Positions 1,666 to 34,700 of a DNA stretch of 64,000 nt are shown in pieces. Position numbers and translations under genes: made by a program. Source of the DNA: Candidatus Abzuiibacterium crystallinum (GTDB taxonomy: Bacteria; Omnitrophota; Omnitrophia; Omnitrophales; Abzuiibacteriaceae); assembly GCA_002787155.1 (NCBI GenBank), contig PCVY01000023.1, forward strand, positions 6,828 to 70,827, read 5' to 3'. The notes under the pieces are model-generated. The model was given only the letters and a program-made list of their open reading frames with translations. It was not told where the DNA came from and did no database searches. Each line of letters opens with the position of its first letter. Positions within the stretch are counted from its first letter, which is position 1.

Positions 1666-2901
1666 ATGCACTCTATTAACACAGGCGATACTGCATGGGT
1701 CATGATTTCATCTGGGTTGGTTCTACTCATGACACCAGGACTTGCTTTTTTCTACGGTGGATTAGTCCGCCGCAAGAATTTTCTTTCCGTTTTAATGCAA
1801 TGTTTCATGATGATTTGTTTGATTACATTGCAATGGATCTTAATCGGTTATAGTTTGTCTTTCGGTCCTGATATCAAAGGATTCATTGGTAACTTAGATT
1901 GGTTTGGATTAAAAAACGTCGGTTTGGAGCCGTCTGCTCAATACGGCACAACGATTCCGCATATTGTTTTCATGATTTTTCAGGGCATGTTTGCCATCAT
2001 CACACCTGCTTTGATTTTGGGCGCTTTTGCGGAACGGATGAAATTTTCCGCCTTTTGTATTTTTTCGGTTCTTTGGGCAACTTTTGTTTACAATCCCATT
2101 TGTCATTGGGTATGGGGTGGCGGATTTCTGGGTGCGGATGGCGCGCTTGATTTTGCCGGCGGTACGGTGGTGCACATTAATGCGGGTGTCGCCGCTTTGG
2201 CGGCGGCGCTGGTACTTGGTAAGCGCAAGGGATATCCTCATAATGTTTCACCTCCGCACAACCTACCTTTTGCGGTTTTAGGTGCAGGACTTTTATGGTT
2301 TGGCTGGTTTGGTTTTAATGCGGGCAGTGCTTTGGCTGCTGATGGGATTGCGGGCAATGCTTTTGTAACGACGCATGTTTCTGCAGCAGCTGCGGGATTA
2401 ACTTGGTCAGTGCTGGATTGGAAATACAATGCCCGCCCAACGATGTTGGGTATGATCACAGGCGCCGTAGCGGGTTTGGTGGCCATTACACCTGCGGCAG
2501 GTTTTGTCGGTCCGTTGGATGCTATCTGGATCGGCGTCGGCTCGGCCATTGTTTGCTACATAGCGGTGGCTGTCATTAAAACAAAATTAGGCTACGATGA
2601 TTCATTGGATGCTTTTGGTGTGCACGGAGTTGGTGGTATATGGGGCGCCTTGGCAACCGGCTTGTGGGCTCATACGGCTGTGAATGCCAATGGTGCAGAT
2701 GGACTTTTTTACGGCAATCCGGAACTCGTGCAAATTCAATTAAAAGCAGTTATCGTCACCGTCATTTATTCTTTTGTCGTGAGCTTCGTTTTACTGAAAG
2801 CAATTGATATGGTGTTAGGTGTGCGTGTGAAAGACGAAGATGAACGTATCGGGCTTGATTTAACACAGCACCGCGAATCCAGCTACACCATGTTGGAATA
2901 A
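1666..2901 (+). CDS. amtB: Ammonium transporter (Amt family)
   Basis: 411 aa and polytopic. The N-terminus DTAWVMISSGLVLLMTPGLAFFYGGLVRRKN and the segment DFAGGTVVHINAGVAALAAALVLGKR are Amt signatures. A strong SD (AGGAGG) precedes the ATG, and a P-II gene follows. Confidence 0.92.
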   Translation: MHSINTGDTAWVMISSGLVLLMTPGLAFFYGGLVRRKNFLSVLMQCFMMICLITLQWILIGYSLSFGPDIKGFIGNLDWFGLKNVGLEPSAQYGTTIPHIVFMIFQGMFAIITPALILGAFAERMKFSAFCIFSVLWATFVYNPICHWVWGGGFLGADGALDFAGGTVVHINAGVAALAAALVLGKRKGYPHNVSPPHNLPFAVLGAGLLWFGWFGFNAGSALAADGIAGNAFVTTHVSAAAAGLTWSVLDWKYNARPTMLGMITGAVAGLVAITPAAGFVGPLDAIWIGVGSAIVCYIAVAVIKTKLGYDDSLDAFGVHGVGGIWGALATGLWAHTAVNANGADGLFYGNPELVQIQLKAVIVTVIYSFVVSFVLLKAIDMVLGVRVKDEDERIGLDLTQHRESSYTMLE

Positions 2902-2958
2902 AAAGCATGAGCAAATAATGGAATCCAAGAGTCTTTTCATCAAAGAAGGAGAATTATC

Positions 2959-3300
2959 ATGAAATATGTGATTGGCATTATTCAGCCCGATCGTTTGGAT
3001 GATGTGCTTGAGTGCTTGAACGAACGCGGCATCCATCTTGTGACGGTTACACCTGTTTTGGGGCGTGGACGGCAAAAAGGGGTTTCAGAAATCTATCGCA
3101 GCCATAAAGAAATGGGCGGCTTGCTTCGGAAAGTCAAAGTGGAAGTGGCTGTGAATGATGAATTTGTGGAACCTACGGTTGAGTGCATTGCCGGCGCCGG
3201 ACGGACGGGTAACATCGGTGACGGGAAAATTTTTATTCTCGATCTTCAAGAATGCATTCGCATTCGCACGGGTGAACGCAACGCGATCGCCATCGGTTAG
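2959..3300 (+). CDS. glnK: Nitrogen regulatory protein P-II
   Basis: 113 aa. MKYVIGIIQPDRLDDVLECL...GDGKIFILDLQECIRIRTGE is a P-II fold signature. It lies immediately downstream of amtB in the canonical amtB-glnK pairing. An SD (AAGGAG) precedes the start. Confidence 0.9.
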   Translation: MKYVIGIIQPDRLDDVLECLNERGIHLVTVTPVLGRGRQKGVSEIYRSHKEMGGLLRKVKVEVAVNDEFVEPTVECIAGAGRTGNIGDGKIFILDLQECIRIRTGERNAIAIG

Positions 3301-3452: not shown

Positions 3453-4937
3453 ATGTGGACAAAAGAACGCCTTCAAGAAATTATCGCTACTAAAATGTCC
3501 GACTATACACTGGTGGTTGTCTCGAATCGCCAGCCCTATAGTCATGTCTTAAAATCAGGCAAAGTAATTTGCCAAAGGCAGCCCGGCGGTTTGGTCACCG
3601 CTCTCAATCCCGTTTTACAAGCCACACAAGGTCTCTGGATCGGGGTTGGTATGAGTCCTTACGATCAGCAGGTGCTTGATGCAAGCGGTAAAGTTCGGGT
3701 ACCGCCTCAGGGTGATAATGGTTATTGGTTACGGCGGCTTTTTTTAAGTAAGGAAGACATGGACGGTTATTATTATGGTTATTCAAACGAAGGATTATGG
3801 CCGCTGGCACACATTGCTTACACACGGCCTAACTTTATCGAGTCTGATTGGCAGGCATACCAAAAAGTCAATCGCATGTTTGCGGATGCAATCTTGCAGG
3901 AAGTTGGGGACCGCAATGCCTTTGTGTGGGTTCAGGATTTTCATTTAACCTTGGTGGCTAAATATTTGCGCGAAGCCAACAAACCCAACATTGTCACATC
4001 ACTTTTTTGGCATATTCCTTGGCCCAATTCGGAAGTTTTTCGCATTTGCCCGCAAAAGAATGAAATCCTGGAAGGTTTGTTGGCTTATGATATGCTGGGT
4101 TTTCATATCCGTTACCATTGCGACAATTTTTTTGCTTCCGTAAACCGCGAACTCGAATGCCGCATTGATTACGAACGGCGTTCGGTCAGTATTCAAAATC
4201 ATGAAACCTTGGTGCGTCAATTTCCGATTTCGGTAGATGCGACGTACATTTCCCAAGAGGTGGAGCAGCCGGAGACGGTTGAAAGATGCAACCATTTGAG
4301 AGATCATTTTAACATTGGCGACCGCAAAATTATTTTAGGGATTGATCGCATTGATTACACCAAAGGCATTCCGGAAAAATTAAAAGCACTCAACCGATTC
4401 CTTGAAAAACACCCGGAGCAAAAAGGACAGTTTAGTTTCTTGCAATTGGGGCAAATCAGCCGTATTCATATTCCGCGTTACAAACAACTCAATGATGAAA
4501 TTAACGCCTTGGTAGAAGAGATTAACTGGAAACACTCTGAAGGTACCTGGCAGCCTATTATTTTAGACCGTTCCTACATTGATCAGGCCGACATCAATGC
4601 GCTTTATCGGATGTCGGATGTTTGTGTGGTGAGTTCGCTTCATGACGGCATGAATTTGGTGGCGAAAGAATTTGTGGCTTGCCGTCCCGATTTGAACGGG
4701 GTGTTGTTGCTCTCAGAGTTTACCGGTGCCGCGCGGGAATTAACGGATGCCGTTGTTTTTAATCCTTACGACACGGAATCATTTGCAGATGCTTTGCAAA
4801 TGGCTTTGACCATGCCGCTTGAAGAACAGGAACGCCGGATGCGGCGGATGCGGGAAATCGTTTTTCATAACAATATTTACCGCTGGGCAGGGAAAGTCCT
4901 TTCACAACTTTTAAAATTTGAGTTTCAAGAAATATAA
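3453..4937 (+). CDS. otsA: Alpha,alpha-trehalose-phosphate synthase (GT20)
   Basis: 494 aa. The sequence VVSNRQPY...GGLVTAL...[16 protein letters not shown]...VWVQDFHL...[10 protein letters not shown]...[14 protein letters not shown] is the GT20 OtsA motif series. Confidence 0.88.
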
Positions 4938-5746
4938 TGATGAAGCGTCTCAAGCATGAGTGGCAGACGCTATCCAAAAGACTTCAAACCGTTAATCTCG
5001 CCCTTTTCCTTGATTATGACGGCACGTTAACACCGATTGTTCGTCATCCGCGTCTGGCCAAACTTTCGAACCAACATCGGCAGATTTTACGCCGTTTGAA
5101 TCGTTGTCCTCATATTTGGATGGCCATTGTCAGCGGCCGAGAACTGAAGGAAGTGAAGCGTTTTGTCCGCATCCCTTCCATGACCTATGCCGGCAATCAC
5201 GGTTTCCAAGTCTCGGGACCTGGTCTACACTTGGTTCATCCGCAAGCTAAAAAAAGTGCCCGTTTATTTCAAAAATTGTTGCCGGCTTTACGCGCTGAGC
5301 TCAAAACCATTTCCGGTTTGTGGGTGGAAAACAAGCAATTAACTTTGAGCATTCACTACAGACAGGTGCGAGCCCGGGATGTTGCCAGAGCCAAACAGAC
5401 GCTCCAGAAGATTTTAAAGCCCTTTTTACGTCAAAGACGACTCAAAATGACTGAAGGAAAAAAAGTGTGGGAGCTCAGGCCGCCGGTGACATGGCATAAG
5501 GGCGAAGCCGTGAAATGGCTTTTGCGTCAAAAGCAATCCAAAAGCAAACGGCCTTGGCTGCCGATTTTTATAGGGGATGATGTGACGGATGAAGATGCTT
5601 TTAAGGCAGTGAAAGGGCATGGCATCGGGGTCAAAGTAGTATATAATTTAAAGAGAAAGCCGGTCAGGAGCCAAGCTTCCTATGGTGTCGCATCCGTACG
5701 AGAAGTATTTTGGTTTCTGCAGGTTCTACAGCAATTGAGGGGTTAA
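4937..5746 (+). CDS. otsB: Trehalose-6-phosphate phosphatase (HAD superfamily)
   Basis: 269 aa. It has HAD motif I LFLDYDGTLTPIV, then VSGR, then GDDVTDEDAF. The start overlaps the otsA stop (TAATGATG), which suggests translational coupling. Confidence 0.82.
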   Translation: MMKRLKHEWQTLSKRLQTVNLALFLDYDGTLTPIVRHPRLAKLSNQHRQILRRLNRCPHIWMAIVSGRELKEVKRFVRIPSMTYAGNHGFQVSGPGLHLVHPQAKKSARLFQKLLPALRAELKTISGLWVENKQLTLSIHYRQVRARDVARAKQTLQKILKPFLRQRRLKMTEGKKVWELRPPVTWHKGEAVKWLLRQKQSKSKRPWLPIFIGDDVTDEDAFKAVKGHGIGVKVVYNLKRKPVRSQASYGVASVREVFWFLQVLQQLRG

Positions 5747-9772: not shown

Positions 9773-11449
9773 ATGAATCTCGGCAGCATACTCAAAGAGC
9801 GCGGTCTTCTGAATGCGGATCAATTGATTAAGGCCGAATCTTACGCTCAATCGAAAAAAATACCGTTAGGTTCGGCGATTCAGCGCCTTAATCTTGCCGC
9901 CAAAGAGCAAATTTACATGACGGTAGCCGAATCCATCGGTGTTCCTTATGTGGATCTATCCAGCTATGAAATTTCTCCCGATTGCACAAAATTGATCGCG
10001 CAAGAAACCGCGCGGCGTTACCGGGCCATTCCGCTTTTCAAAATCCAACAAACACTCACAGTCGCCATGGAAGACCCCACCAAATTGGCGGCGATTGACC
10101 GGATCCGGCATGAATCCAAAATGGAAATCGAATTGTGTTTGGCCGCCCCTGAAGACGTGCAAGAAGCTTTAGACCGTTACTTTGGCGTTTCGGGGACCAT
10201 TTCGAAATTGCTGGCTTCTTTAGATGCCGAAGACAAAGTCCGCCGGCGCGGAAGTGCGCCGCCCAAAGCAAAGCCGCTTAGCTTTGAAGCAACGGGGGGT
10301 GAACAGCCGATTGTGCAATTGGTCAATTTGATAGTCGAAGAAGCCGTGGAGCGGGGCGCCAGTGACATTCATATTGAACCCGAAGCAAACGAACTGCGCG
10401 TTCGTTACCGCATTGATGGTGTTTTGCAGGAAGCTCCTTCGCCGCCCAAACACTATGAAAGCGCGATCGTGTCGCGCTTAAAAGTGTTGGCCAATTTAGA
10501 TATTGCCGAAACCCGCATGCCCCAGGACGGTCAAATGAAAATCCAAGTCAAGAGCCGGGCCATTGATATTCGTGTCTCGGTCGTCCCGACCATTTATGGG
10601 GAAAACGCGGTCTTACGTATTCTAGATACCAACCGCGCTTTGCTCGACTTAAAACAATTGGGTTTTGCCGATGCCATGCTCCATCAGTTTGAAGAACTCA
10701 TCCGAAAATCCTACGGCATGATTTTAGTCACAGGCCCTACGGGCAGCGGCAAAACCACTTCACTTTATGCAGCTTTAACAGCCATTAATTCGGTTGAGCG
10801 CAGCATTGTCACCATTGAAGACCCGGTGGAATTCAAATTATCCCTCATTCGCCAAATCCAAGTGAACCCCAAAGCACAGCTGACGTTTGCCAACGGGCTT
10901 CGTTCCATTGTGCGGCAAGATCCGGATGTCATTATGGTCGGTGAAATCCGTGACTCCGAAACGGCCCACATTGCTACGCAAGCGGCGCTCACGGGCCATT
11001 TGGTTTTTAGTACGCTGCATACGCAAAATGCGGCGGGAGCCATTACGCGATTAGATGACATGGGGGTTGAGCCGTTTTACATTTCCTCATCGCTTCTATG
11101 CGTGGTTGCGCAGCGGCTGGTGCGTACCATTTGCGGGCAATGTAAAAAAACATATGATCCGCCTTCGGATATTCTAAACGCGATTCCGGCCAAGCACCGT
11201 TCAGAGATGAAGTTCTATAAAGGAAAAGGCTGTCAAAAATGCCAGCAAACGGGTTATCGAGGCCGTATTGGTATTTTTGAATTGCTTCGCATGACCGATG
11301 CGATCCGCCGGATGATTGCCAAAAAAGCAGTCAGTGCCGACATCCAACAACAAGCCGAAGCTGATGGCATGCAAACTTTATTTCTTGATGGTTTGGAAAA
11401 AGTGAAAGCGGGTATTACCACCATTGATGAAATTTTGAAAGTGATGTAG
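9773..11449 (+). CDS. GspE/PilB-family secretion or pilus-assembly ATPase
   Basis: 558 aa. It has an N-terminal T2SE_N/MshEN-like domain, Walker A GPTGSGKTTSLYAAL, Asp/His boxes (IMVGEIRDSETA, GHLVFSTLHT) and a tetracysteine cluster CGQCKK...CQKCQQTGYRGRIGIFE. Confidence 0.92.
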   Translation: MNLGSILKERGLLNADQLIKAESYAQSKKIPLGSAIQRLNLAAKEQIYMTVAESIGVPYVDLSSYEISPDCTKLIAQETARRYRAIPLFKIQQTLTVAMEDPTKLAAIDRIRHESKMEIELCLAAPEDVQEALDRYFGVSGTISKLLASLDAEDKVRRRGSAPPKAKPLSFEATGGEQPIVQLVNLIVEEAVERGASDIHIEPEANELRVRYRIDGVLQEAPSPPKHYESAIVSRLKVLANLDIAETRMPQDGQMKIQVKSRAIDIRVSVVPTIYGENAVLRILDTNRALLDLKQLGFADAMLHQFEELIRKSYGMILVTGPTGSGKTTSLYAALTAINSVERSIVTIEDPVEFKLSLIRQIQVNPKAQLTFANGLRSIVRQDPDVIMVGEIRDSETAHIATQAALTGHLVFSTLHTQNAAGAITRLDDMGVEPFYISSSLLCVVAQRLVRTICGQCKKTYDPPSDILNAIPAKHRSEMKFYKGKGCQKCQQTGYRGRIGIFELLRMTDAIRRMIAKKAVSADIQQQAEADGMQTLFLDGLEKVKAGITTIDEILKVM

Positions 11450-11459
11450 TTTAGAGATA

Positions 11460-11626
11460 CCAGAAACCGGTTTCATAAGTCCTCGTAAACCTAATAAAGA
11501 CATGTCATTGCGAGCTGAAGGCGAAGCAATCTCAGGTTTTAAAGAGGGATTGCCGCGTCGCTCCTTCGGAGTTCCTCGCAATGACGTGAATAAGGTAACT
11601 TATGAAGCCGCTTCCAGAAACCGGTT
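11460..11626. mobile_element. MITE-like palindromic element between the ATPase and platform genes
   Basis: The core has nested inverted repeats: GTCATTGCGAG (11504-11514) / CTCGCAATGAC (11575-11585), and GAAGCAATC (11523-11531) / GATTGC (11548-11553). Outer inverted repeats are TTCATAAG (11472-11479) / CTTATGAA (11599-11606). A 13-nt direct repeat CCAGAAACCGGTT flanks it at 11460-11472 and 11614-11626. Confidence 0.6.
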
Positions 11627-11714: not shown

Positions 11715-12956
11715 GTGCCCATTTATCGTTATAAAGTCAAAACCGCGCAAGGTGAAGTGGTCACCGGTGCGATTGATGTTGAGAACAAGGAGTCGCTTCA
11801 AAAACAGTTGCGCACGCAAGGCCTGAGGCTTTTAGCGGCACAATTGGTTTCCACCAAGCCTGTTCCGGATGAAGACCGGTCCCTTCTGGTCGAACAAAAA
11901 AGAATCCGCGTTTCAAAAGCCCGTGTCCGCGATGAAGATATTTTAATGTTTACCCGTGAATTGCACAGTCTGGTCCGCTCCGGCATTCCGATCTTAAGCG
12001 GACTGCATTCCATGGCAGCCTCCACGAGTCACCGGACGATTAAAAATGTTGTTCTGTCTTTAGCCAATGATGTGGAAGCGGGCGAGCGGCTCTCAGATGC
12101 CATGCGCCGTCATCCGAACGTTTTCGAAGAAGTCTATGTGAGCAGCGTGGTAGCCGGTGAAGCGGCAGGGCAATTGCCGGAAGTATTAAGTCATTTAATT
12201 TCACTGCTTGAGCACCGGATTGAAACGCGAGGCGATATTCAAACGGCGACCCGTTATCCGTTAATTGTTTTAATCACGCTCGGTATTGGGTTTGGGATTA
12301 TCATTAATTTTGTCATTCCAAAGTTTGCCGGTTTCTACGCCAAATTTAACGCCGAACTTCCGCTGCCGACAAGGTTTTTAATTGCCTTGGGTCATTTGAC
12401 TTCCCAGCACGGTCTCGCTATGTTGGTCGTGCTTACTATTTGTATTTTCGCGGTTCGTATTTTTCTGCGTACGCCGATCGGAAAAAGTAGGTGGGACCAG
12501 CTCACGCTTCAAGTGCCTGTTTTTGGTCCGCTGTATCATAAAATTGCGTTATCTACTTTTGCAGCAACACTTGAGATGCTATATCGAAGCGGTGTTCCTA
12601 TCACGGAAGCTTTGCGTGTTGCCGCGCATGTGACCGGTAATGATATCGTAAGGCGCGGTGTGATCGACGTGCGGGAAGGTGTTTTGGCAGGCGAACCGAT
12701 TGCGGCGGTCATGAAACGGCATGCGATTTTTCCTTCGCTCATGGTGCAAATGATGTCCACTGGGGAGCAGACGGGTAACTTGGATCAATTGTTGCGTGAT
12801 TTGGCCAATCATTACGACCGGCAAGTCAAATATGAAACCAAGAACCTGACCACTTTAATCGAGCCCATGCTGACCATTTTATTAGGAGGGATGGTGCTGG
12901 TATTTGCCCTGGGTATTTTCTTACCCATGTGGAACATGATTCATCTCTTCAGATAA
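11715..12956 (+). CDS. GspF/PilC-family inner-membrane platform protein
   Basis: The listed ORF is 11502..12956, but its first ~70 codons are the translated MITE (MSLRAEGEAIS...). A GTG at 11715 is preceded by AAGGGA 6 nt upstream and gives MPIYRYKVKTAQGEVVTG, a typical GspF N-terminus, for a product of ~413 aa. Two T2SSF repeats are evident. Confidence 0.85.
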   Translation: MPIYRYKVKTAQGEVVTGAIDVENKESLQKQLRTQGLRLLAAQLVSTKPVPDEDRSLLVEQKRIRVSKARVRDEDILMFTRELHSLVRSGIPILSGLHSMAASTSHRTIKNVVLSLANDVEAGERLSDAMRRHPNVFEEVYVSSVVAGEAAGQLPEVLSHLISLLEHRIETRGDIQTATRYPLIVLITLGIGFGIIINFVIPKFAGFYAKFNAELPLPTRFLIALGHLTSQHGLAMLVVLTICIFAVRIFLRTPIGKSRWDQLTLQVPVFGPLYHKIALSTFAATLEMLYRSGVPITEALRVAAHVTGNDIVRRGVIDVREGVLAGEPIAAVMKRHAIFPSLMVQMMSTGEQTGNLDQLLRDLANHYDRQVKYETKNLTTLIEPMLTILLGGMVLVFALGIFLPMWNMIHLFR

Positions 12957-12969
12957 TGCCTTGGGGTGT

Positions 12970-13095
12970 CTTGGGGTCAGCACCTGAAGTTCATTGACAT
13001 TATTTAATATTCTTAATGAAAGCTTCAGGTACAGTCCCAACCAACCCTTAATATATAAATTGGAAGGTTGGGACAGGTCGGGGTCTGACCCCAAG
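12970..13095 (+). repeat. 126-nt nested-palindrome element (predicted three-way junction) just after the platform gene
   Basis: Outer stem: CTTGGGGTCAG (12970-12980) / CTGACCCCAAG (13085-13095). Inner hairpin A: ACCTGAAGTTCATT (12982-12995) / AATGAA..CTTCAGGT (13015-13030). Inner hairpin B: GTCCCAACC (13034-13042) / GGTTGGGAC (13066-13074). Confidence 0.55.
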
Positions 13096-13099
13096 AGTA

Positions 13100-13127
13100 T
13101 TGAACTTAACGTATTCTGTGGTATGAT
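13100..13127 (+). promoter_or_regulatory. Sigma70-like promoter (extended -10) for the first pilin gene
   Basis: TTGAAC (13100-13105), a 16-nt spacer, then TGgTATGAT (13119-13127). It lies between the palindromic element and the SD/ATG of the first prepilin gene. Confidence 0.4.
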
Positions 13128-13211
13128 AATTAAAGTTCAGTAAGCAGTTTTAGTTTCTATGTTTTCATGACGTTATGTTATAAAGATATCACTGCAAACG
13201 GAGGTCGTGCA

Positions 13212-13727
13212 ATGAAAAGTCGTCGTTTATCCCGAAAAGGTTTTACCCCGTTAGAGAATGAATCAGTATTAATTGGAAGTCATGACAAAAAGCCTATTGA
13301 TTGTCAAAGTGGAAAAACCCGCTTGAGAAAGAAACGCTCTCTAACGGGGTTTACGTTAATTGAATTAGTGATGGTCATTGTTGTATTAGGTTTTCTAGCG
13401 GTTGCCGCATTGCCGTCCTACTTTGATATTTCAACCGCTGCCCAAACAGCCAATGAAGATGGTGTCGTTGGCGGTGTCCGAGCCGGCATTGCCACCCAAT
13501 TTGTATCAGTGTTTACCACCGGAATCGGAACGCCTACATTTCCGGCTTCATTGGATACAGTAGGTGTTGCAACTACCTGTGATTCGGCTAACCCATGTTT
13601 TTCAACAGTATTACCAGGCGGTGTAACAGACGGTAATTGGACAAAAACAACCGCCACGCAATACACGGGCCCAAACAGCGGAACGTATACTTACAATTCA
13701 TCAAACGGCACTTTTACATCACCCTAA
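13212..13727 (+). CDS. Prepilin-type N-terminal cleavage/methylation domain protein (candidate major pilin/pseudopilin) with an abnormally long, duplicated leader
   Basis: GGAGG (13200-13204) lies 7 nt before ATG 13212, inside listed ORF 13167..13727. The sequence has RSLTG|FTLIELVMVIVVLGFLAVAALP (class III signal plus hydrophobic helix). The C-terminus is Thr/Ser/Gly-rich. Confidence 0.8.
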   Translation: MKSRRLSRKGFTPLENESVLIGSHDKKPIDCQSGKTRLRKKRSLTGFTLIELVMVIVVLGFLAVAALPSYFDISTAAQTANEDGVVGGVRAGIATQFVSVFTTGIGTPTFPASLDTVGVATTCDSANPCFSTVLPGGVTDGNWTKTTATQYTGPNSGTYTYNSSNGTFTSP

Positions 13728-13918
13728 TTTATTTATTCTCTGTTTTTCCTGTTAAGTGCTGCTACTGATGGGAAACTATTATTTCCATGTGATAACATGT
13801 ATTTTCACACAAAAAGTATTACTCCGCCCACGGACGCTCAAACAGTTCTATCAATAATTAATAGAAAAACTTCCCTAACGCAATCCGTTAGCAACAGCAC
13901 TCTTCAGAACTTAACCTT

Positions 13919-14386
13919 ATGCTGAATTTTCGCGCTGAGCGATGCAACCGAGTTTCTCGCGGGGCGGGGTTTACGCTTATTGAGCTCACCATCATCATTG
14001 TGATTATCGGTGTTTTGGCTGCTGCTGCTATTCCGCGTTATCTTGATCTCACCAACGAAGCAAAATTAAATGCCACCAAAGGTATTTTAGGTAATATGCG
14101 TGCCGCCATTATGATGCAGCGTGTGGATAACATCATCAAAACAGGTCAAGACCGTTTTCCGTCGTTAGCAGATATTCAGGATAATCCTTTTCAAACGGGT
14201 TGTACCGTTTTAGAAACGGGGGATCTTCCCGACAATCCTTTTAGTACAGGCTCGGATCCGGACGGTGTGGTGAGTACCACAGGCCGCCCCGTACCGACCG
14301 GTACGGATGGGGCGTGGGCCTATGATCCGCGAACGGGCGGTTTTTACGCAAACACCAAGAGCGGGAATGGCGAGGAACTTTTCTAA
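13919..14386 (+). CDS. Prepilin-type pilin/pseudopilin (GspG/PilA-like)
   Basis: 155 aa. It has RGAG|FTLIELTIIIVIIGVLAAAAIPRYLDLTNEAK, with Glu at +5 and the typical alpha1 helix. Confidence 0.82.
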   Translation: MLNFRAERCNRVSRGAGFTLIELTIIIVIIGVLAAAAIPRYLDLTNEAKLNATKGILGNMRAAIMMQRVDNIIKTGQDRFPSLADIQDNPFQTGCTVLETGDLPDNPFSTGSDPDGVVSTTGRPVPTGTDGAWAYDPRTGGFYANTKSGNGEELF

Positions 14387-14399
14387 TTTAGTAACTTAT

Positions 14400-14969
14400 A
14401 TGGGGTCAGACCCTGACCTGACCCCAAGACTAAGGGTCAGGTCAGGGTCTGACCCCAGGAAGAAGCGTTCCCTGTCTCTAACGGGGTTTACCCTCATCGA
14501 AATCCTGGTTGTTTTCACCGTCATCGTTTTTCTTTCCGTTTTTGCACTGACTAATTTCATCGATTTCTCCGCAACCCGTATCGAGGGGGCTGCCAAACGC
14601 ATTCAAACCGACATTCGTTATATTCAGCAAATTGCGTTGGCGCAGCAAAGAAGAACGCGTATCACCTTTGATGCCGGCACGGATAGTTATGCGGCTGAAA
14701 TGGAAAACACGCCCAATGCGGAAGATTGGACGTCGATCAATGACCCGCTGACCCGCCAGACTTTTCAGGTTATTTTTAATACGGGCGACTATCAAGGGGT
14801 TGATATCACAGGGGTGACGCTTGGCAGCGGGGATGTTTTGATATTTGATGAGATGGGCGATCCTTATACGGATGGAAACGTCGCTTTGGTAGAACCCGCC
14901 AATATTGTTTTAAACGGGACGCGTCAGATCCAAATCACAAGGGAAACAGGCCGTGTTCAAATTGTTTAA
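14400..14969 (+). CDS. Minor pseudopilin, GspH/FimT-like
   Basis: In listed ORF 14307..14969, the ATG at 14400 follows the upstream stop (14386). It has SLSLTG|FTLIEILVV followed by AKRIQTDIRYIQQIALAQQRRTRITFD, a GspH/FimT-type domain pattern. Confidence 0.72.
   Translation: MGSDPDLTPRLRVRSGSDPRKKRSLSLTGFTLIEILVVFTVIVFLSVFALTNFIDFSATRIEGAAKRIQTDIRYIQQIALAQQRRTRITFDAGTDSYAAEMENTPNAEDWTSINDPLTRQTFQVIFNTGDYQGVDITGVTLGSGDVLIFDEMGDPYTDGNVALVEPANIVLNGTRQIQITRETGRVQIV
14401..14457. repeat. REP-like perfect palindrome (24-bp arms, 9-nt loop)
   Basis: TGGGGTCAGACCCTGACCTGACCC (14401-14424) and GGGTCAGGTCAGGGTCTGACCCCA (14434-14457) are exact reverse complements. Confidence 0.9.
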
Positions 14970-15013
14970 CCCGTTAGAGACGCACGGGGTCTGACCCCAG
15001 GAGTACTACTAAA

Positions 15014-15436
15014 ATGCTTATCCAATTTCAAGTTGGAAAGACGCAATTGCAAAAAAGACGCTCTCTAACGGGGTTTACCCTGATCGAAATCGTGATTGTC
15101 ATCGTGGTTCTTTCGCTGGTAGCAGCCACACTTCTGACGGTGATGGGTGCCATTAGTCAAAACGTGATCCTTCCTTTCATGACTCAAATTGCAACCGGGC
15201 TCGCTGAAGAGCAGTTTGAACGCGTGATCGGACTTCGGTTTTCACAAGTCACAGACGAAGGGCCGGCAGCATTTGCGTTTCCCTTTACGGATTATTCGTA
15301 TGAGATTACCGTGAGTCCCGTTCCGGCAAATCTTTTTAATGATCCTTCCATGACACGTTACAAACAAGTGGAAATTGAAGTGAGTCACGCCTTAGTTGGC
15401 CATGTGAATGTGTACACGGTGGTAACCAATCATTAA
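15014..15436 (+). CDS. Minor pseudopilin (GspI/PilV-like)
   Basis: 140 aa. It has KRRSLTG|FTLIEIVIVIVVLSLVAATLL, a prepilin signal. Confidence 0.72.
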   Translation: MLIQFQVGKTQLQKRRSLTGFTLIEIVIVIVVLSLVAATLLTVMGAISQNVILPFMTQIATGLAEEQFERVIGLRFSQVTDEGPAAFAFPFTDYSYEITVSPVPANLFNDPSMTRYKQVEIEVSHALVGHVNVYTVVTNH

Positions 15437-15453
15437 CGGAGGGCTCGGGGCGC

Positions 15454-15478
15454 GGGGTCAGGTCCCGGACCTGACCCC
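15454..15478. repeat. REP-like 25-nt perfect palindrome
   Basis: GGGGTCAGGTCC-C-GGACCTGACCCC. It lies 18 nt after the upstream stop (15436) and 4 nt before ATG 15483. Confidence 0.9.
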
Positions 15479-15482
15479 TGAA

Positions 15483-16043
15483 ATGGATGACATGTTAAGT
15501 CGAATGATGCAAAAAAGAAGAGGGTTTACCCTTGTCGAACTGGTGATGGTGATTGCCATCATCGGGATCATGGCAGGCCTCCTTGGCCCTTTTTTGATTG
15601 TCACCGCTGATGCGCTGGATTTAATGTCCGTACAGTCCAATCTACAGGAAAGCGCTCAGGCGGCACTGGAACGCATGAGCCGTGATATTCGGCGGCTTCG
15701 GGATGATGAAAGTGTGGTGAATGCATCTTCCAGCTTTTTTTGGTTTTATGATGTGGATGACCGTCAAATGATTTATATTTTGGTCGGCAATACTTTGGTC
15801 CGGGTGATTTTTCCCGTTACACTTCCGCTGACTGTTCTAGCCGATCACGTTCAAACACTTTTGTTTCGCTATTATGATGACGATGGAAACCTCATTCCTT
15901 CTCCTGTGGTCGGATTGGGAACCGCCACCAATATCCGCCGCGTTCAAGTCGATATTCTTTTTGCAGACGGCAGTAAAAATTTAGTCGTGGAAGATAACAT
16001 TAGACCGAGAAATTTAAGACATGAATCCGATCGATTCTTTTAA
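15483..16043 (+). CDS. Minor pseudopilin (GspJ/PilW-like)
   Basis: 186 aa. It has MQKRRG|FTLVELVMVIAIIGIMAGLL followed by LQESAQAALERMSRDIRRL, a GspJ/PulJ-type pattern. Confidence 0.72.
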   Translation: MDDMLSRMMQKRRGFTLVELVMVIAIIGIMAGLLGPFLIVTADALDLMSVQSNLQESAQAALERMSRDIRRLRDDESVVNASSSFFWFYDVDDRQMIYILVGNTLVRVIFPVTLPLTVLADHVQTLLFRYYDDDGNLIPSPVVGLGTATNIRRVQVDILFADGSKNLVVEDNIRPRNLRHESDRFF

Positions 16044-17517
16044 AAGCTTGGGGTCAGGTCCGGGACCTGACCCCAGGAAAAAAGGTGTTTCACTGATCGC
16101 AGCCGTTGTGCTCATGCTGTTATTGGGCCTTTCGGGTGCCATTGGTTCGGCCATTGTGGCCAATGCCGGCATCCGCACGGTGCATACAGCACAAAGTTTA
16201 CAAGCCTTAGGCATTGCGCATGCCGGCATCGAATGGTATTTGGAACAATTGGAAGACGATACCGATTGGACTGATCAAACAAATGAAGTTCGCTTATTTG
16301 GGCCGCCGAGCACAGTGAGTAGTTTTACAATCCAGATTAACAATGCGTCTGCTACGGAAGTGAATTTCACATCCCTAGGACTTTTGGCGGGTTTGGATGG
16401 ACGGACCATGCAGCGCCGTTTAACGGTCACGGCTCAAAAAATGCCGTCCGCTTTTCTTTTTGCCTTGTATCAAGGCGAAGACCCGGGGGCTAACTTGGAA
16501 ATCAGAAATTCTTCCGTGGTCACAGGGGACATGTGGTCGCGGGGTTCAGTCAATGTTTTTTCTGGTAACACGGTACAGAATGGTTTGGTGTATGTGCCTG
16601 ATACCGAAACGGTGAGTGGTGCCGGTACGTTTACCGCTAAACAAATGACAGCGCCCTATCCCGCGATGCCGCAGATCACAACCACCAGTTACACCACGCT
16701 CATGGATGGATACGACACTACGATTGATACCGCTTCTGGTGCGGGTGATGATCCGCGAAATAGCGATATATTTTTATCGGGCAATACCATTTTGGCCAGA
16801 AACTTTTCAACATCAGGCACCATGACCATTACCGGGCACGGCACGATCGTCGCATTTCGAAATATGGACCTGCATACCGGCAATGGCGGAACGCTCACCA
16901 TCACACCATCCGGTGGGGACATTGTTTTCTTAGCAGGCCGCAATCTGGAAATCGGTAATACCAATGGCAATTCCACAGTTACAGTGAATGGCTCTGTGAC
17001 ACCCGGCAGTACCTGCCGCTTTTATTCAGAAGCCATGACCAATGCGAGTCAGCGCGTGCGGGTAAGCGGCAGTAATACCAATGTACACGGAGCTAATTTT
17101 TATGCGCGCCGCCGCATCTCAGTGGATAATAATGCTGTCATTGATCAGGGGAGTCTGCTTTATATTGATCGCGCCTCTTCCGCCAATAACAACCAAATTG
17201 ATATTACGGGTTCCGCCACGGCAGTCATCGGCTCTGTGATTAGTACCGGTCGGAATAATCTAAACCTTAGGATCCGGAATCAAGCGACGGTAACCGGTCT
17301 TGTTTATTCGTATGACACGGGCGGCAACGGACGTTTAGAGCTCAACAATTGCACCGTAACGGGTGCGGCGGCGGCCCAAAATTTCCGTGTCGGTAATAAT
17401 AACAATCGGATTCAAAGCGCAGCCGTTACTTACAGCGCCAGCGCTTTACCTTCAAGTGTTCCGAATGGATTTGAGACTTATGTTGTCAAAAAACCGAATT
17501 CGTGGGATCCTTTATAA
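16021..17517 (+). CDS. Large PilX/GspK-like pilus-associated protein with a repetitive C-terminal region rich in Asn, Thr, Ser and Gly
   Basis: 498 aa. The N-terminus KKGVSLIAAVVLMLLLGLSGAIGSAIV...AQSLQALGIAHAGIEWYLEQL matches the PilX N-terminal pattern and has no G|FTLIE site. The remainder is N/T/S/G-rich with short periodic hydrophobic positions, suggesting a beta-solenoid. Confidence 0.6.
   Translation: MNPIDSFKSLGSGPGPDPRKKGVSLIAAVVLMLLLGLSGAIGSAIVANAGIRTVHTAQSLQALGIAHAGIEWYLEQLEDDTDWTDQTNEVRLFGPPSTVSSFTIQINNASATEVNFTSLGLLAGLDGRTMQRRLTVTAQKMPSAFLFALYQGEDPGANLEIRNSSVVTGDMWSRGSVNVFSGNTVQNGLVYVPDTETVSGAGTFTAKQMTAPYPAMPQITTTSYTTLMDGYDTTIDTASGAGDDPRNSDIFLSGNTILARNFSTSGTMTITGHGTIVAFRNMDLHTGNGGTLTITPSGGDIVFLAGRNLEIGNTNGNSTVTVNGSVTPGSTCRFYSEAMTNASQRVRVSGSNTNVHGANFYARRRISVDNNAVIDQGSLLYIDRASSANNNQIDITGSATAVIGSVISTGRNNLNLRIRNQATVTGLVYSYDTGGNGRLELNNCTVTGAAAAQNFRVGNNNNRIQSAAVTYSASALPSSVPNGFETYVVKKPNSWDPL
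16050..16074. repeat. REP-like 25-nt perfect palindrome
   Basis: GGGGTCAGGTCC-G-GGACCTGACCCC. It lies 7 nt after the upstream stop (16043), inside the 5' coding end of the next ORF. Confidence 0.9.
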
Positions 17518-31701: not shown

Positions 31702-34700
31702 ATGTTCATCCCTAAAAATATCCAGAGAGCCATAGCCTTTTTTCTTGCCATTTCATTCTCTTTATCGAATGGCCCAACGCTTTTACTTGCCGAAACTTAT
31801 CCGGGAAGCAGCCTGCCATACCATGCGAGCTCTGTGAATCCAAATGCTATTTTGGATTCCCTTAAGCTTCCCGGTGAGTTAGGCATTGTTCAAGAGGTTT
31901 ATAGCGCGGTACCAGGTACAACGGTGCCAGGTTCACAGAACCCGGCACCGGCTGTACCTGGTACCGGAATTGGTTTCAAAGTTAATCAACTGGTCATCCT
32001 CGTGCAAAATGCCCACGCCAATTATGATTCAGAGTCAAACGTCCGCAAAATCATCCAGTTCTTCCAAGAGCACTATCAATTAGGACTTGTTTTACTGGAA
32101 GGCGGGGAAGGCAAGTTAGACCCGCTTTTTTTTAAATCTTTTCCCGATGGCAAAATAAAAGAAAAACTGCTGGATCAATATTTAAAACATGGGGATTTAC
32201 AAGGCGGTGAAGCAGCAGCCATTTTGAATCATTCAAACAACCCAACGAGTTATTGGGGCATTGAAGATGAAACTTTGTACCAGCAAAACAAAGCGGCCTT
32301 CTTAAAAGCCATTGTTCAAACGGATCAAATCTTAAAACAGCTTACTCAAAAAGAAGCCGCACTCGAGGAAAACATTGCTTCATTGCCTGAATCATCACAA
32401 ACCTTTTACAAGGCTTGGCAGGCTTTTCATGCGGATGAGATGAATTTGCTGGAATACGTGAAAACGTTAGCTGAGCATACATCGGGTACCGGTTCTGTTG
32501 ACAGTGTCATTCCCGCTCGTCTTTGGCGGGAATCTACTGTGATCGGTGCTCTTGTGCGCTCATTTCCCGAACTTGCCAAATTGTTGGAAGTAGAGAAAGG
32601 CGAGCAAGCCCTCCAAAAAAGCGAAATTGACATGACCGTCAACCAACTGTTGAAAGAATTTCAATCAACTGCGCTGCCGGCGCTGTCAGTCGAATCACAG
32701 AAAGAATGGGGCCAGCGGATCCAGGATTATCAAACCGGCCGGCTCGGCGTGGGTTTTTTGATCAAACAGCTTGAAAGTTTTCTTACCATTCCCGATGTTC
32801 TAAAACCTGCTATTCAGCACGCCCAAACCATTTCTTCCGTCCGGGGAACAGAAATATTCCATGAACTTGAGCATTTAGAGAATGCTGTTCGCGATCAATT
32901 GCCGGGGCGTGAGCGCCTTCATCAAGTTAACGAACTGCATCTCTTGAAACGGTTTGCGCGTTTAGAAATTACACATGAAGAGTGGAAGGTCATTGCGAGC
33001 GCAGCGAAGCAATCTCAAGACCAAGGATTGCTTCGGTCATTTCATTCCCTCGCAATGACAGAAATGCTTAAGAACCATTTCACTTTCTACCAACTCGCAC
33101 TCAAGCGTGACGGCATTTTATCCGGCCGCATTCTCGAAATCATGCGCCGTGAATCTCAAAAAGTTTCGCTCGTGGTGACCGGCGGTTTTCATGAAAGCGG
33201 TATCAAAGAGCGCCTCCGGGCAAACGGCACCGCTTATGTTTTGATTTCTCCTGCGATTCAGGAAGTCGGATCAAACGAGGCTTACCTCAATGCCATGCAC
33301 GACAAGCGTTCTTTTATGAAATATTTTCAAGGCAGTTATTGGGATGCTTTGGCAAAGGATTACATGCAGCAATCGTCAGCGGCTGCGGGTCCGCAGGAAG
33401 AAAAGTTTATTTTTAAGCAGTGGCGCGATCAACTCATCCAAAACACGCTGCAGGAGGGCAGAATCACGCAGGCAACGCGTTACACGCGCTATTTGGATTC
33501 ATTTTTACAAACCGAGGGAAAACCAGCGGATGACAAAGTTGGCAGAAAAACTCAATTAGAAGGTGCTTTCGAAAGTTTCCTTTCAACTTATTTTAAACAG
33601 CATCAAGCTGATTTGAATGCCAAGCTTGATCATTTTGCGGCAGGTTTCAAAAATATGCTCACACAGGGCACCTTCACGCAAGGGGCGGTCGAAGCCTTGT
33701 TGCGTCAAACACAAGTCCTGCAAACGGCTCAACTCGCACCGGATCTCGCTTTGATTCCGGCCTGGAACCAATTTCATTTAAGTGAAGCAACGATTGAAAC
33801 ACTGCCTGATATCAACCAACCTCTTTGGCTCGAGCACAAGCAAAAATCCGAACTCAGGAGTGAAGAGGTAGACTCTGATTATTGGTATGCTTATGGTGAG
33901 GAATTCCTTATTTTGATGGAAGAGGTGGGGTACCGGATAGATGAAACTGACCTTGAAGGTGATATAACTCTGGAGGTAGAGACAGTATCAGACGATCGCT
34001 TTCCTAAAGATTTTAGCAAATTAGCTAAAAGTGTTCCCGAATCGGACCTCACACGTTTACGCGACACATATATCCATATTCTAAAGAATGCCATTGGGAA
34101 AAGTCGAACACTTGAGGAGATAGTTGAAGGCTTGAGCACTTTAATATTAAGGCAGGCAGGAATTCGATTAAATGACAGAAAATTAATTGAAGCCATTACT
34201 GATATTTTACTAACCTATAAAGAAAAAGGGGTGACGGGACCCACCCTGCAGCTGCGCCACGTTTATCTATTTCCAAGATATGGTGATGTGAATGAAATCA
34301 TTCAATTACTGGCCAACCATCGAGGGAAACGCGGAACCTTGAGCCAAACCCAACGGCAACTGATTGCACAGCAACTCGAAAACATGAAAGAGCAATGGCA
34401 AGCAAATTACGAAAGAGCTCAAGCCGAAAAAACCGAAGAACCTAAGGTTGATGGTCAACCCAAAACCGGTGAATCGCTTTGGCTGGAGGGTCAACCAAAA
34501 CCCGAACTCAGAAACGCAAAAGATTATACTCAGATGAGTGTCAAAGAATTGCTTGTAGAACTTCAATCAACTCGAAGTCAAAGTAGTCAAGTCAATTTTA
34601 AAATACTTAGGATTACCAGCGAGCTGGAGCAGCGCTCAGAGAAGATGTTAGACAGCGAGATAGTGGCGACTATCAATGCTTTACTTTCTGCATTGATGTT

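Follow-up and report, generated by a model that had tools for sequence, protein, structure and literature searches.

Repetitive extragenic palindromic (REP) sequences and their inverted doublets (REPINs) are short, G+C-rich, hairpin-forming and non-autonomous repeats that are mobilised through single-stranded DNA hairpins by REP-associated tyrosine transposases (RAYTs), which are IS200-like transposases of the HUH/Y1 kind. In E. coli, Pseudomonas and Marinobacter they occur as palindromes of about 13–40 nt, singly and as inverted doublets, spread at gene ends and within operons and co-transcribed there; the papers that define REPs and REPINs (PMC3337134, PMC3116915) make REPs extragenic by definition. 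Here we examine a family of GGGGTC..GACCCC palindromes in a pilus operon of Candidatus Abzuiibacterium crystallinum, an Omnitrophota metagenome-assembled genome (MAG) from Crystal Geyser groundwater. The stretch of DNA analysed, hereafter the window, is 64,000 nt long; together with other contig stretches, the analysis covered 92.7 kb of this genome, and all same-genome counts given below refer to that sequence. We consider it probable that the palindromes are REP/REPIN-type mobile repeats, dispersed in this genome, that were recently inserted into the junctions of the pilin operon. To our knowledge, work on REP/REPIN repeats has been confined almost entirely to Proteobacteria, and REPIN-RAYT systems are described as mostly vertically inherited. 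No description of the GGGGTC..GACCCC motif or of the organism was found in the searchable literature.

Other described systems also bear comparison with this locus. [quoted passage not shown] Rickettsia palindromic elements (RPEs) are palindromic selfish DNA that lies in frame within protein-coding genes and is translated (PMC10969869); they are about 100–150 bp long, encode a peptide that is conserved, and are present across many metabolic genes. Lastly, E. coli REPs lower translation when fewer than 16 nt separate them from a stop codon (PMC12306157), and that paper, citing Higgins et al. (1988), treats REP-mediated mRNA stabilisation as established.

Results

Within the window, the pattern GGGGTC-N(1-13)-GACCCC occurs five times, against 0.02 ± 0.14 expected from 100 dinucleotide shuffles (250-fold over chance), and the three longest perfect hairpins of the entire 64 kb all belong to this family. 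All five matches fall within 12970–16075, so placed that of the six cistron junctions in the pilus operon five are occupied, and no copy is found in the rest of the window. A sequence-only reading of this DNA had reported palindromes at 14401–14457, 14986–14998, 15454–15478 and 16050–16074, with a related core in 12970–13095, placed after stop codons at 12956, 14386, 14969, 15436 and 16043; the palindromes and the stops are all present at those coordinates. Taken in the order of the stops, the hairpins begin 13, 14, 16, 17 and 5 nt past them. The region is identical in independent assemblies (L001, L002), which excludes an assembly artefact.

The copies differ in length and architecture. The one that follows the GspF-like gene is a 126-nt composite (12970..13095) bounded by CTTGGGGTCAG, a half REP on the left, and CTGACCCCAAG; its right end, GGGGTCTGACCCCAAG, is a full 13-nt REP, GGGGTCTGACCCC (13080–13092), and it encloses two inner hairpins, of which that at 13034–13074 is conserved in the relative L131. 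Inside the leader-coding sequence of pil3 lies a REPIN-like doublet (14401..14457, 57 nt in total) with 24-nt perfect inverted arms and a 9-nt loop, each arm being an imperfect palindrome in itself (GGGGTCAG..CTGACCCC); this is the REPIN architecture of two inverted REPs, as defined in PMC3337134. The 13-nt REP GGGGTCTGACCCC recurs at 14986..14998, 16 nt past the pil3 stop, and its 3′ flank is AGGAG, which resembles a Shine-Dalgarno sequence and stops 10 nt short of ATG 15014. The 25-nt REP GGGGTCAGGTCCCGGACCTGACCCC (GGGGTCAGGTCC-C-GGACCTGACCCC) at 15454..15478 lies 17 nt past the pil4 stop and 4 nt before ATG 15483, and its counterpart GGGGTCAGGTCC-G-GGACCTGACCCC at 16050–16074, with 13-nt arms when extended to 27 nt (16049..16075), lies in the N-terminal coding sequence of the PilX-like gene. 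These two 25-nt copies are exact reverse complements, 571 nt apart.

The strongest indication of what these palindromes are comes from Marinobacter. The exact 25-mer occurs at five loci in four genomes among 185,579 species genomes, none of the four being the source species, and two of these loci lie in a single Marinobacter MAG (L011). There, a PF01797 Y1_Tnp (IS200-like) gene at 4751–5395 is flanked by cttGGGGTCAGGTCCCGGACCTGACCCCaac and GGGGTCAGGTCCGGGACCCGACCCC, with the flanking 25-mer copies at 4660–4684 and 5412–5436 and four copies in 8 kb. In M. excellens, the orthologous and syntenic RAYT (L142 10001–10651) has doublets of ttGGGGTCAGACCCCagga and cttGGGGTCTGACCCCaa on either side; these doublets, in the 13-mer form, are 53 nt long (ttGGGGTCAGACCCCagGACATTTG...AAATGTCttGGGGTCTGACCCCaa) and lie at 9881–9933 and 10655–10707, and there are six such doublets in 20 kb. 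A transposase gene flanked by its own repeats is the RAYT signature, and one homologue of the Marinobacter transposase is annotated as a REP-associated tyrosine transposase. Furthermore, the flanks cttGGGG, CCCCagga and CCCCaag in the window match the flanks of the Marinobacter RAYT-associated repeats. Because the 13-mer and 25-mer forms, flanks included, match RAYT-flanking repeats of two Marinobacter genomes, we file the family as REP/REPIN-type. The possibility that the 25-mer loci are chance matches among hairpins was considered and rejected, as the Marinobacter copies are multi-copy and flank a RAYT.

The family is also found at unrelated genes of the same genome. Among the matches listed by a metagenome scan with 10-nt arms, most belong to high-GC REP families and one is a contig of the source organism; this contig (L042, 46% GC), with the copies in L135, was assigned to the same MAG by shared PIQ86xxx accessions and taxon. 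One of these copies makes up the final 15 codons of a RimO/MiaB-like gene (L135 5490–5513) and is thus in translated sequence, and another lies between YjeF_N and L-2-hydroxyglutarate oxidase genes (L135 6231–6255). At a third locus, 6.3 kb upstream of the window, the doublet GGGGTCAGACC-taaaag-GGTCTGACCCC (L137 552–581) lies 15 nt past a stop and before a YceI gene. Altogether there are 9 copies at three loci, all 9 at boundaries between co-directional cistrons. Doublets are represented by 14401–14457 and L137 552–581, the composite at 12970–13095 is bounded by inverted half-sites, and the remaining copies are singlets. With copies at unrelated junctions here and 13-nt and 25-nt palindromes flanking a Marinobacter RAYT, the analogy that had been drawn with REPs and bacterial interspersed mosaic elements has held up well.

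A large serine recombinase gene (Resolvase + Recombinase + Zn_ribbon_recom; L135 2476–4134) lies directly upstream of the palindrome-ended RimO-like gene.

Comparison with relatives bears on when the palindromes arrived. Among the closest relatives found, syntenic pilus operons are present in L131 (GspF 66% identical), L133/L134 (49%) and L139 (pil4 36%), and none of these operons contains a GGGGTC..GACCCC palindrome. Their pilin cistrons abut or overlap; specifically, pil4 and pil5 overlap in L131 (ATGA), and pil5 and pilX overlap in relatives too. The absence of the palindromes from these operons points to recent insertions in the Ca. Abzuiibacterium crystallinum lineage, and it speaks against the earlier proposal of a regulatory design dedicated to the pilin operon.

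Where the palindromes lie inside genes, the sequence points to their being translated. The pil3 open reading frame (ORF) is open from 14307, and its ATG 14367, which overlaps the pil2 stop, is conserved in the closest relative L131 (aATGGCGArGA in both) and was also selected by the gene caller. The leader that starts there is MARNFSNLVTYMGSDPDLTPRLRVRSGSDPRKKRSLSLTG|FTLIE, within which 14401–14457 reads as MGSDPDLTPRLRVRSGSDP, and the copy at 16049–16075 in the PilX-like gene reads as LGSGPGPDP. In both genes only the gene's own frame is free of stops, the other two frames hitting stops inside the palindrome, and the translations first given for these copies (GSDPDLTPRLRVRSGSDP and GSGPGPDP) are correct. 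For the PilX-like gene, the N-terminus is MNPIDSFK-SLGSGPGPDPRKK-GVSLI in the window and MNQTDSFK-NKKNNQK-GVSLI in the L131 orthologue; the two proteins share the start codon and the sequence on either side of the palindrome, which substitutes in frame for a short basic linker. By orthologue comparison and frame, then, both palindromes are predicted to be translated. The suggestion that ATG 14400 is the only available start of pil3, and that the stem would therefore occlude initiation, does not survive: the conserved start sits 34 nt upstream of the stem, which would have to be unwound during elongation and not during initiation.

The corresponding RNA folds strongly in three of the five regions. 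The region of the 57-nt doublet folds with −64.2 kcal/mol (z −7.5), the composite 12970–13095 with −54.6 kcal/mol (z −4.9) and the 16050 region with z −3.4, and the 15454 region does not fold above its shuffles (z −0.56). The distance from stop to hairpin is at most 15 nt in 5 of 7 measurable cases and 16 and 17 nt in the other two. Rfam searches, in evalue mode on the region and in gathering mode on the whole window, gave only sub-threshold generic miRNA-hairpin matches.

The palindromes are set in an MSHA-like type IV pilus operon, all on the forward strand, in which five prepilin-like genes lie between a GspF-like and a PilX-like gene. The operon opens with an MshE/GspE-type pilus ATPase (9773..11449, MshEN + T2SSE domains), followed by the GspF/PilC-like platform protein (11715..12956), the prepilins pil1 (13212..13727, with a doubled leader, KGFT-PLEN...RSLT-GFTLIE) and pil2 (13919..14386), the GspH-like minor pilin pil3 (14367..14969), the minor pilins pil4 (15014..15436) and pil5 (15483..16043), and the PilX-like protein (16021..17517), described in one source annotation as ‘PilX N-terminal domain-containing’. 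A homologue search with pil4 returned four matches only, with plain short leaders in the distant ones. Downstream of the PilX-like gene lie PilZ, TPR, MerR and ParA-like genes, then PilM/N and a secretin. Further on, one stop-free frame of at least 10,767 codons (31699–63999, +) continues past the window end; giant genes of this sort are reported for Omnitrophota, and as this ORF fills the window from 31.7 kb, the window has only about 30 cistron junctions.

A second repeat type in the operon, which we call element ii, is a cassette of 99–102 nt with inverted arms of the form (A)CCCCGTTAGAGA and TCTCTAACGGGG(T), flanked by 9-bp direct repeats GGNTTYACN, coding G-F-T. In the pil4 region (14970..15072, +) its arms are CCCGTTAGAGA (14970–14980) and TCTCTAACGGG (15062–15072), and it brackets the 13-nt REP, the Shine-Dalgarno sequence and the pil4 start, with a long-range stem around the Shine-Dalgarno sequence and AUG predicted by minimum-free-energy folding. 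The copy in pil1 (13245..13350, +) has the arms ACCCCGTTAGAGA and TCTCTAACGGGGT, with GGTTTTAC and GGTTTAC as its flanks; it is an insertion of 108 nt, in frame, that the L131 orthologue does not have, and its interior is 74% identical to the 5′ region of pil4. Full extents are 13239–13355 (pil1), 14965–15080 (pil4) and 14475–14485 (pil3, right arm only) in the window, and about 3870–3990, 4396–4515 and 5000–5110 in L131. The interior of about 100 nt reads in frame as a second leader (KGFT-PLEN...RSLT-GFTLIE), the element being placed in frame exactly at the prepilin cleavage codons. Filled and empty sites are found in both directions, with pil1 filled in the window and empty in L131 and pil2 filled in L131 and empty in the window; the L131 pil2 copy shows a compensatory arm change, CCCGTTACAGA/TCTGTAACGGG (also GTTACAGA/TCTGTAAC). 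When the 51-aa doubled leader of pil1 served as query in an exhaustive HMMER search, only two spurious repeat proteins came back and the element was not found in other lineages, which indicates that the cassette is lineage-restricted. Element ii may be either a MITE that inserts in frame at a specific target or an RNA stem under selection.

A third, MITE-like element lies at the GspE/GspF junction (11460–11626). It has 13-nt direct repeats CCAGAAACCGGTT, an inverted repeat TTCATAAGT/ACTTATGAA and an inner hairpin GTCATTGCGAG...CTCGCAATGAC with a fold of −62 kcal/mol. Further sites are found at 32989–33059 of the window, L135 4712–4826 and L133 14879–14982, and copies of the inner hairpin lie within the giant ORF and within the RimO-like ORF. 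Four independent assemblies stop at 11498–11528, presumably because of this repeat. The GspF-like ORF taken from ATG 11502 (484 aa) has an N-terminus about 71 codons longer than that of all homologues, which cover 85% of it, and this extension traverses the element; a start at GTG 11715, which has AAGGGA in front of it, yields 413 aa, exactly as long as the closest homologue, P0002. The start at ATG 11502 is therefore probably over-extended through the MITE-like insertion.

Some further hairpins and repeats were observed alongside these. The inner hairpin at 13034–13074, GTCCCAACC...GGTTGGGAC with an AT-rich loop (AATATAAATT), is kept in the 66%-identity relative L131 (about 2750–2800) though the surrounding intergenic region is unalignable, and it lies just upstream of a promoter-like site (13100–13127, TTGAAC-16-TATGAT with TG) that precedes pil1. 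In L131, the 716-nt spacer between GspF and pil1 holds a long-range inverted repeat (2690–3000), CCTCCCTGTACTAGTGTCG...CGACACTAGTACAGGGAGG, with about 240 nt between its arms, which suggests another MITE-like insertion at the same junction. Separately, high-GC (0.70–0.75) soil organisms carry high-copy REP-like palindromes (Joint Genome Institute metagenome contigs L012–L130, e.g. Ga0209051, Ga0306920, Ga0318513) that have the same 11-nt arm, GGGGTCAGGTC-(TTCA/TGAA/GGA/TCC)-GACCTGACCCC, and often come as inverted pairs spaced by about 30 nt, whose outer flanks, gaatgccg/cggcattc, are conserved. No RAYT was seen between the REP pairs of these high-GC loci, where the ORFs look ordinary (translations inspected, no Pfam scan).

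Discussion

The GGGGTC..GACCCC palindromes share with described REP/REPIN-RAYT systems the short G+C-rich hairpin, the arrangement as singlets and inverted doublets, the co-transcribed position at gene ends and within operons, and a core and flanks identical to repeats that flank a RAYT. Other known systems resemble them less. Like RPEs, some of these palindromes lie in frame within ORFs and appear, from orthologue comparison and the frame test, to be translated; unlike RPEs, the copies are 13–57 nt long, the translated pieces (25–57 nt) belong to a REP family and are confined to leader or tail regions at the N-terminus, and the peptides they encode vary from copy to copy. The stop-proximal REPs of E. 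coli have a parallel in hairpins that begin 5–17 nt past the stop of the upstream cistron, although two of the spacings here (16 and 17 nt) exceed the 15-nt limit. In contrast to Correia elements and MITEs, the palindromes have no separate terminal inverted repeats, and no direct repeats indicative of a target-site duplication were detected beside them at the flanks examined; the MITE definition better fits the operon's two other element types (11460–11626 and 13239–13355).

A history consistent with these observations can be proposed. Dispersal would have taken place at co-directional cistron junctions of Ca. Abzuiibacterium crystallinum, the copies being mobilised by a RAYT within this genome, and after the split from the nearest sequenced relatives five of them would have entered the junctions of the minor-pilin block. 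Copies in non-coding spacer would simply be co-transcribed. Within sequence that must be read, that is, the pil3 leader and the N-terminal tail of the PilX-like protein, the survivors would be only the frame-compatible, stop-free insertions, which would be translated; they may be tolerated because cleavage at G|FTLIE takes the prepilin leader off and the PilX-like tail precedes the hydrophobic segment. The presence of two further kinds of small inverted-repeat element in the same operon indicates that its junctions accumulate selfish DNA, and the three element types together argue for a permissive, insertion-prone region over a designed regulatory system.

Several observations weigh against this history and set the locus apart from known REP/REPIN-RAYT systems, beyond the fact that the host belongs to the Omnitrophota. 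Pfam domain lists show no RAYT (Y1_Tnp, PF01797) in the 92.7 kb sampled, and in a homology search with the Marinobacter RAYT the named organisms among the best 120 matches are all Gammaproteobacteria. No GTAG or CGTC tag lies beside the palindromes, here or in Marinobacter, the 5′ flanks being ctt, cac, cgc, gtc and cgt. The copy number of 9 applies to the sampled sequence and not to the whole genome, and while 6 of these 9 copies are intercistronic, the other 3 (14401–14457, 16049–16075 and L135 5490–5513) lie in translated sequence. Lastly, the copies are strongly clustered, with 5 of 6 junctions occupied in the pilin block compared with 3 of the roughly 51 other junctions sampled (Fisher p = 8e-5), a concentration that random insertion by itself does not explain. 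Possible causes are tolerance, as the leaders are cleaved off; local spread via the near-identical GFTLIE-coding sequences of the paralogous pilins (repeat families D1–D5); and selection for altered stoichiometry.

This last cause leads to the most serious rival explanation, which we regard as unlikely: that the hairpins are selected intercistronic RNA regulators, or exapted REPs, kept for setting the relative output of the minor pilins by blocking 3′–5′ decay, holding up ribosomes at termination, breaking translational coupling or delaying elongation across the leader. The clustering in the pilin block is what such regulators would predict, as are the constant placement 5–17 nt after stops, the very stable folds in three of the five regions (z −3.4 to −7.5), the AGGAG that the 13-nt copy provides upstream of pil4, the preserved reading frames and the precedent of those E. 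coli REPs that act on translation from within 16 nt of a stop (PMC12306157). However, the hairpins are missing from all three orthologous operons examined, the same sequence is found at unrelated genes here and beside a transposase in another phylum, and the 15454 hairpin shows no fold signal above its shuffles. Effects on mRNA stability or translation are nonetheless plausible by analogy with E. coli REPs: very stable hairpins 5–17 nt after stops would protect the upstream mRNA 3′ ends, those within 15 nt would hinder terminating ribosomes, and the insertions would loosen the translational coupling present in relatives.

Far less can be said for the remaining explanations. It is very improbable that the palindromes are recombination sites that generate pilin variation in the manner of a shufflon or inverton; inverted repeats do lie at pilin 5′ ends, the 15454 and 16050 copies being exact reverse complements, and a large serine recombinase gene adjoins the copies on the other contig, but the orientation is the same in all assemblies, the sequences are also found at genes other than pilins, and in-silico inversion of the pil1 element ii insertion (13245–13350), the only inversion simulated, introduces stops. 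We give equally little credence to operator sites for a dimeric DNA-binding protein controlling the pilin genes, an idea also raised by the sequence-only reading: the core is a perfect dyad, GGGGTC-W-GACCCC, in several copies per operon, yet arm length and half-site spacing vary between 13 and 57 nt, too much for a dimer of fixed geometry, the sites lie within and between cistrons away from the promoter-like site at 13100–13127, and copies are found at unrelated genes and next to a transposase in other phyla. Intrinsic terminators or attenuators between the pilin genes are hardly credible, for although G+C-rich stems lie just past stop codons, no copy is followed by a T-run or U-tract, a terminator scan flags none, and two copies lie within coding sequence.

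Returning to the palindromes as REP/REPIN-type mobile repeats, a more far-reaching version can be formulated, one that we think quite unlikely as a whole and offer only as speculation. One REP/REPIN family (core ttGGGGTC-W-GACCCCagga plus its 25-nt derivative) would be shared by Marinobacter, together with its RAYT, and Omnitrophota through transfer between phyla, either of a REPIN-RAYT system or of the specificity of a RAYT; its copies would then have been exapted as translated ‘hairpin leaders’ and as junction hairpins that set minor-pilin stoichiometry, acting together with the lineage-specific in-frame cassette that sits at the prepilin cleavage codons and regenerates them.

The same REP is now known from an uncultivated Omnitrophota genome and from Marinobacter, and the locus suggests that REP copies can persist within coding sequence when they lie in a disposable N-terminal leader and can disrupt translationally coupled minor-pilin cistrons. 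At most, a specialist might be surprised that the REP is identical across phyla and that it survives in prepilin leader-coding sequence. On a practical level, the repeats account for inflated or mis-started gene calls at pil3, at the GspF-like gene and at the C-terminus of the RimO-like gene. Should the hairpins indeed adjust the stoichiometry of the pilins, they would represent a natural case of selfish DNA recruited for operon-internal control.

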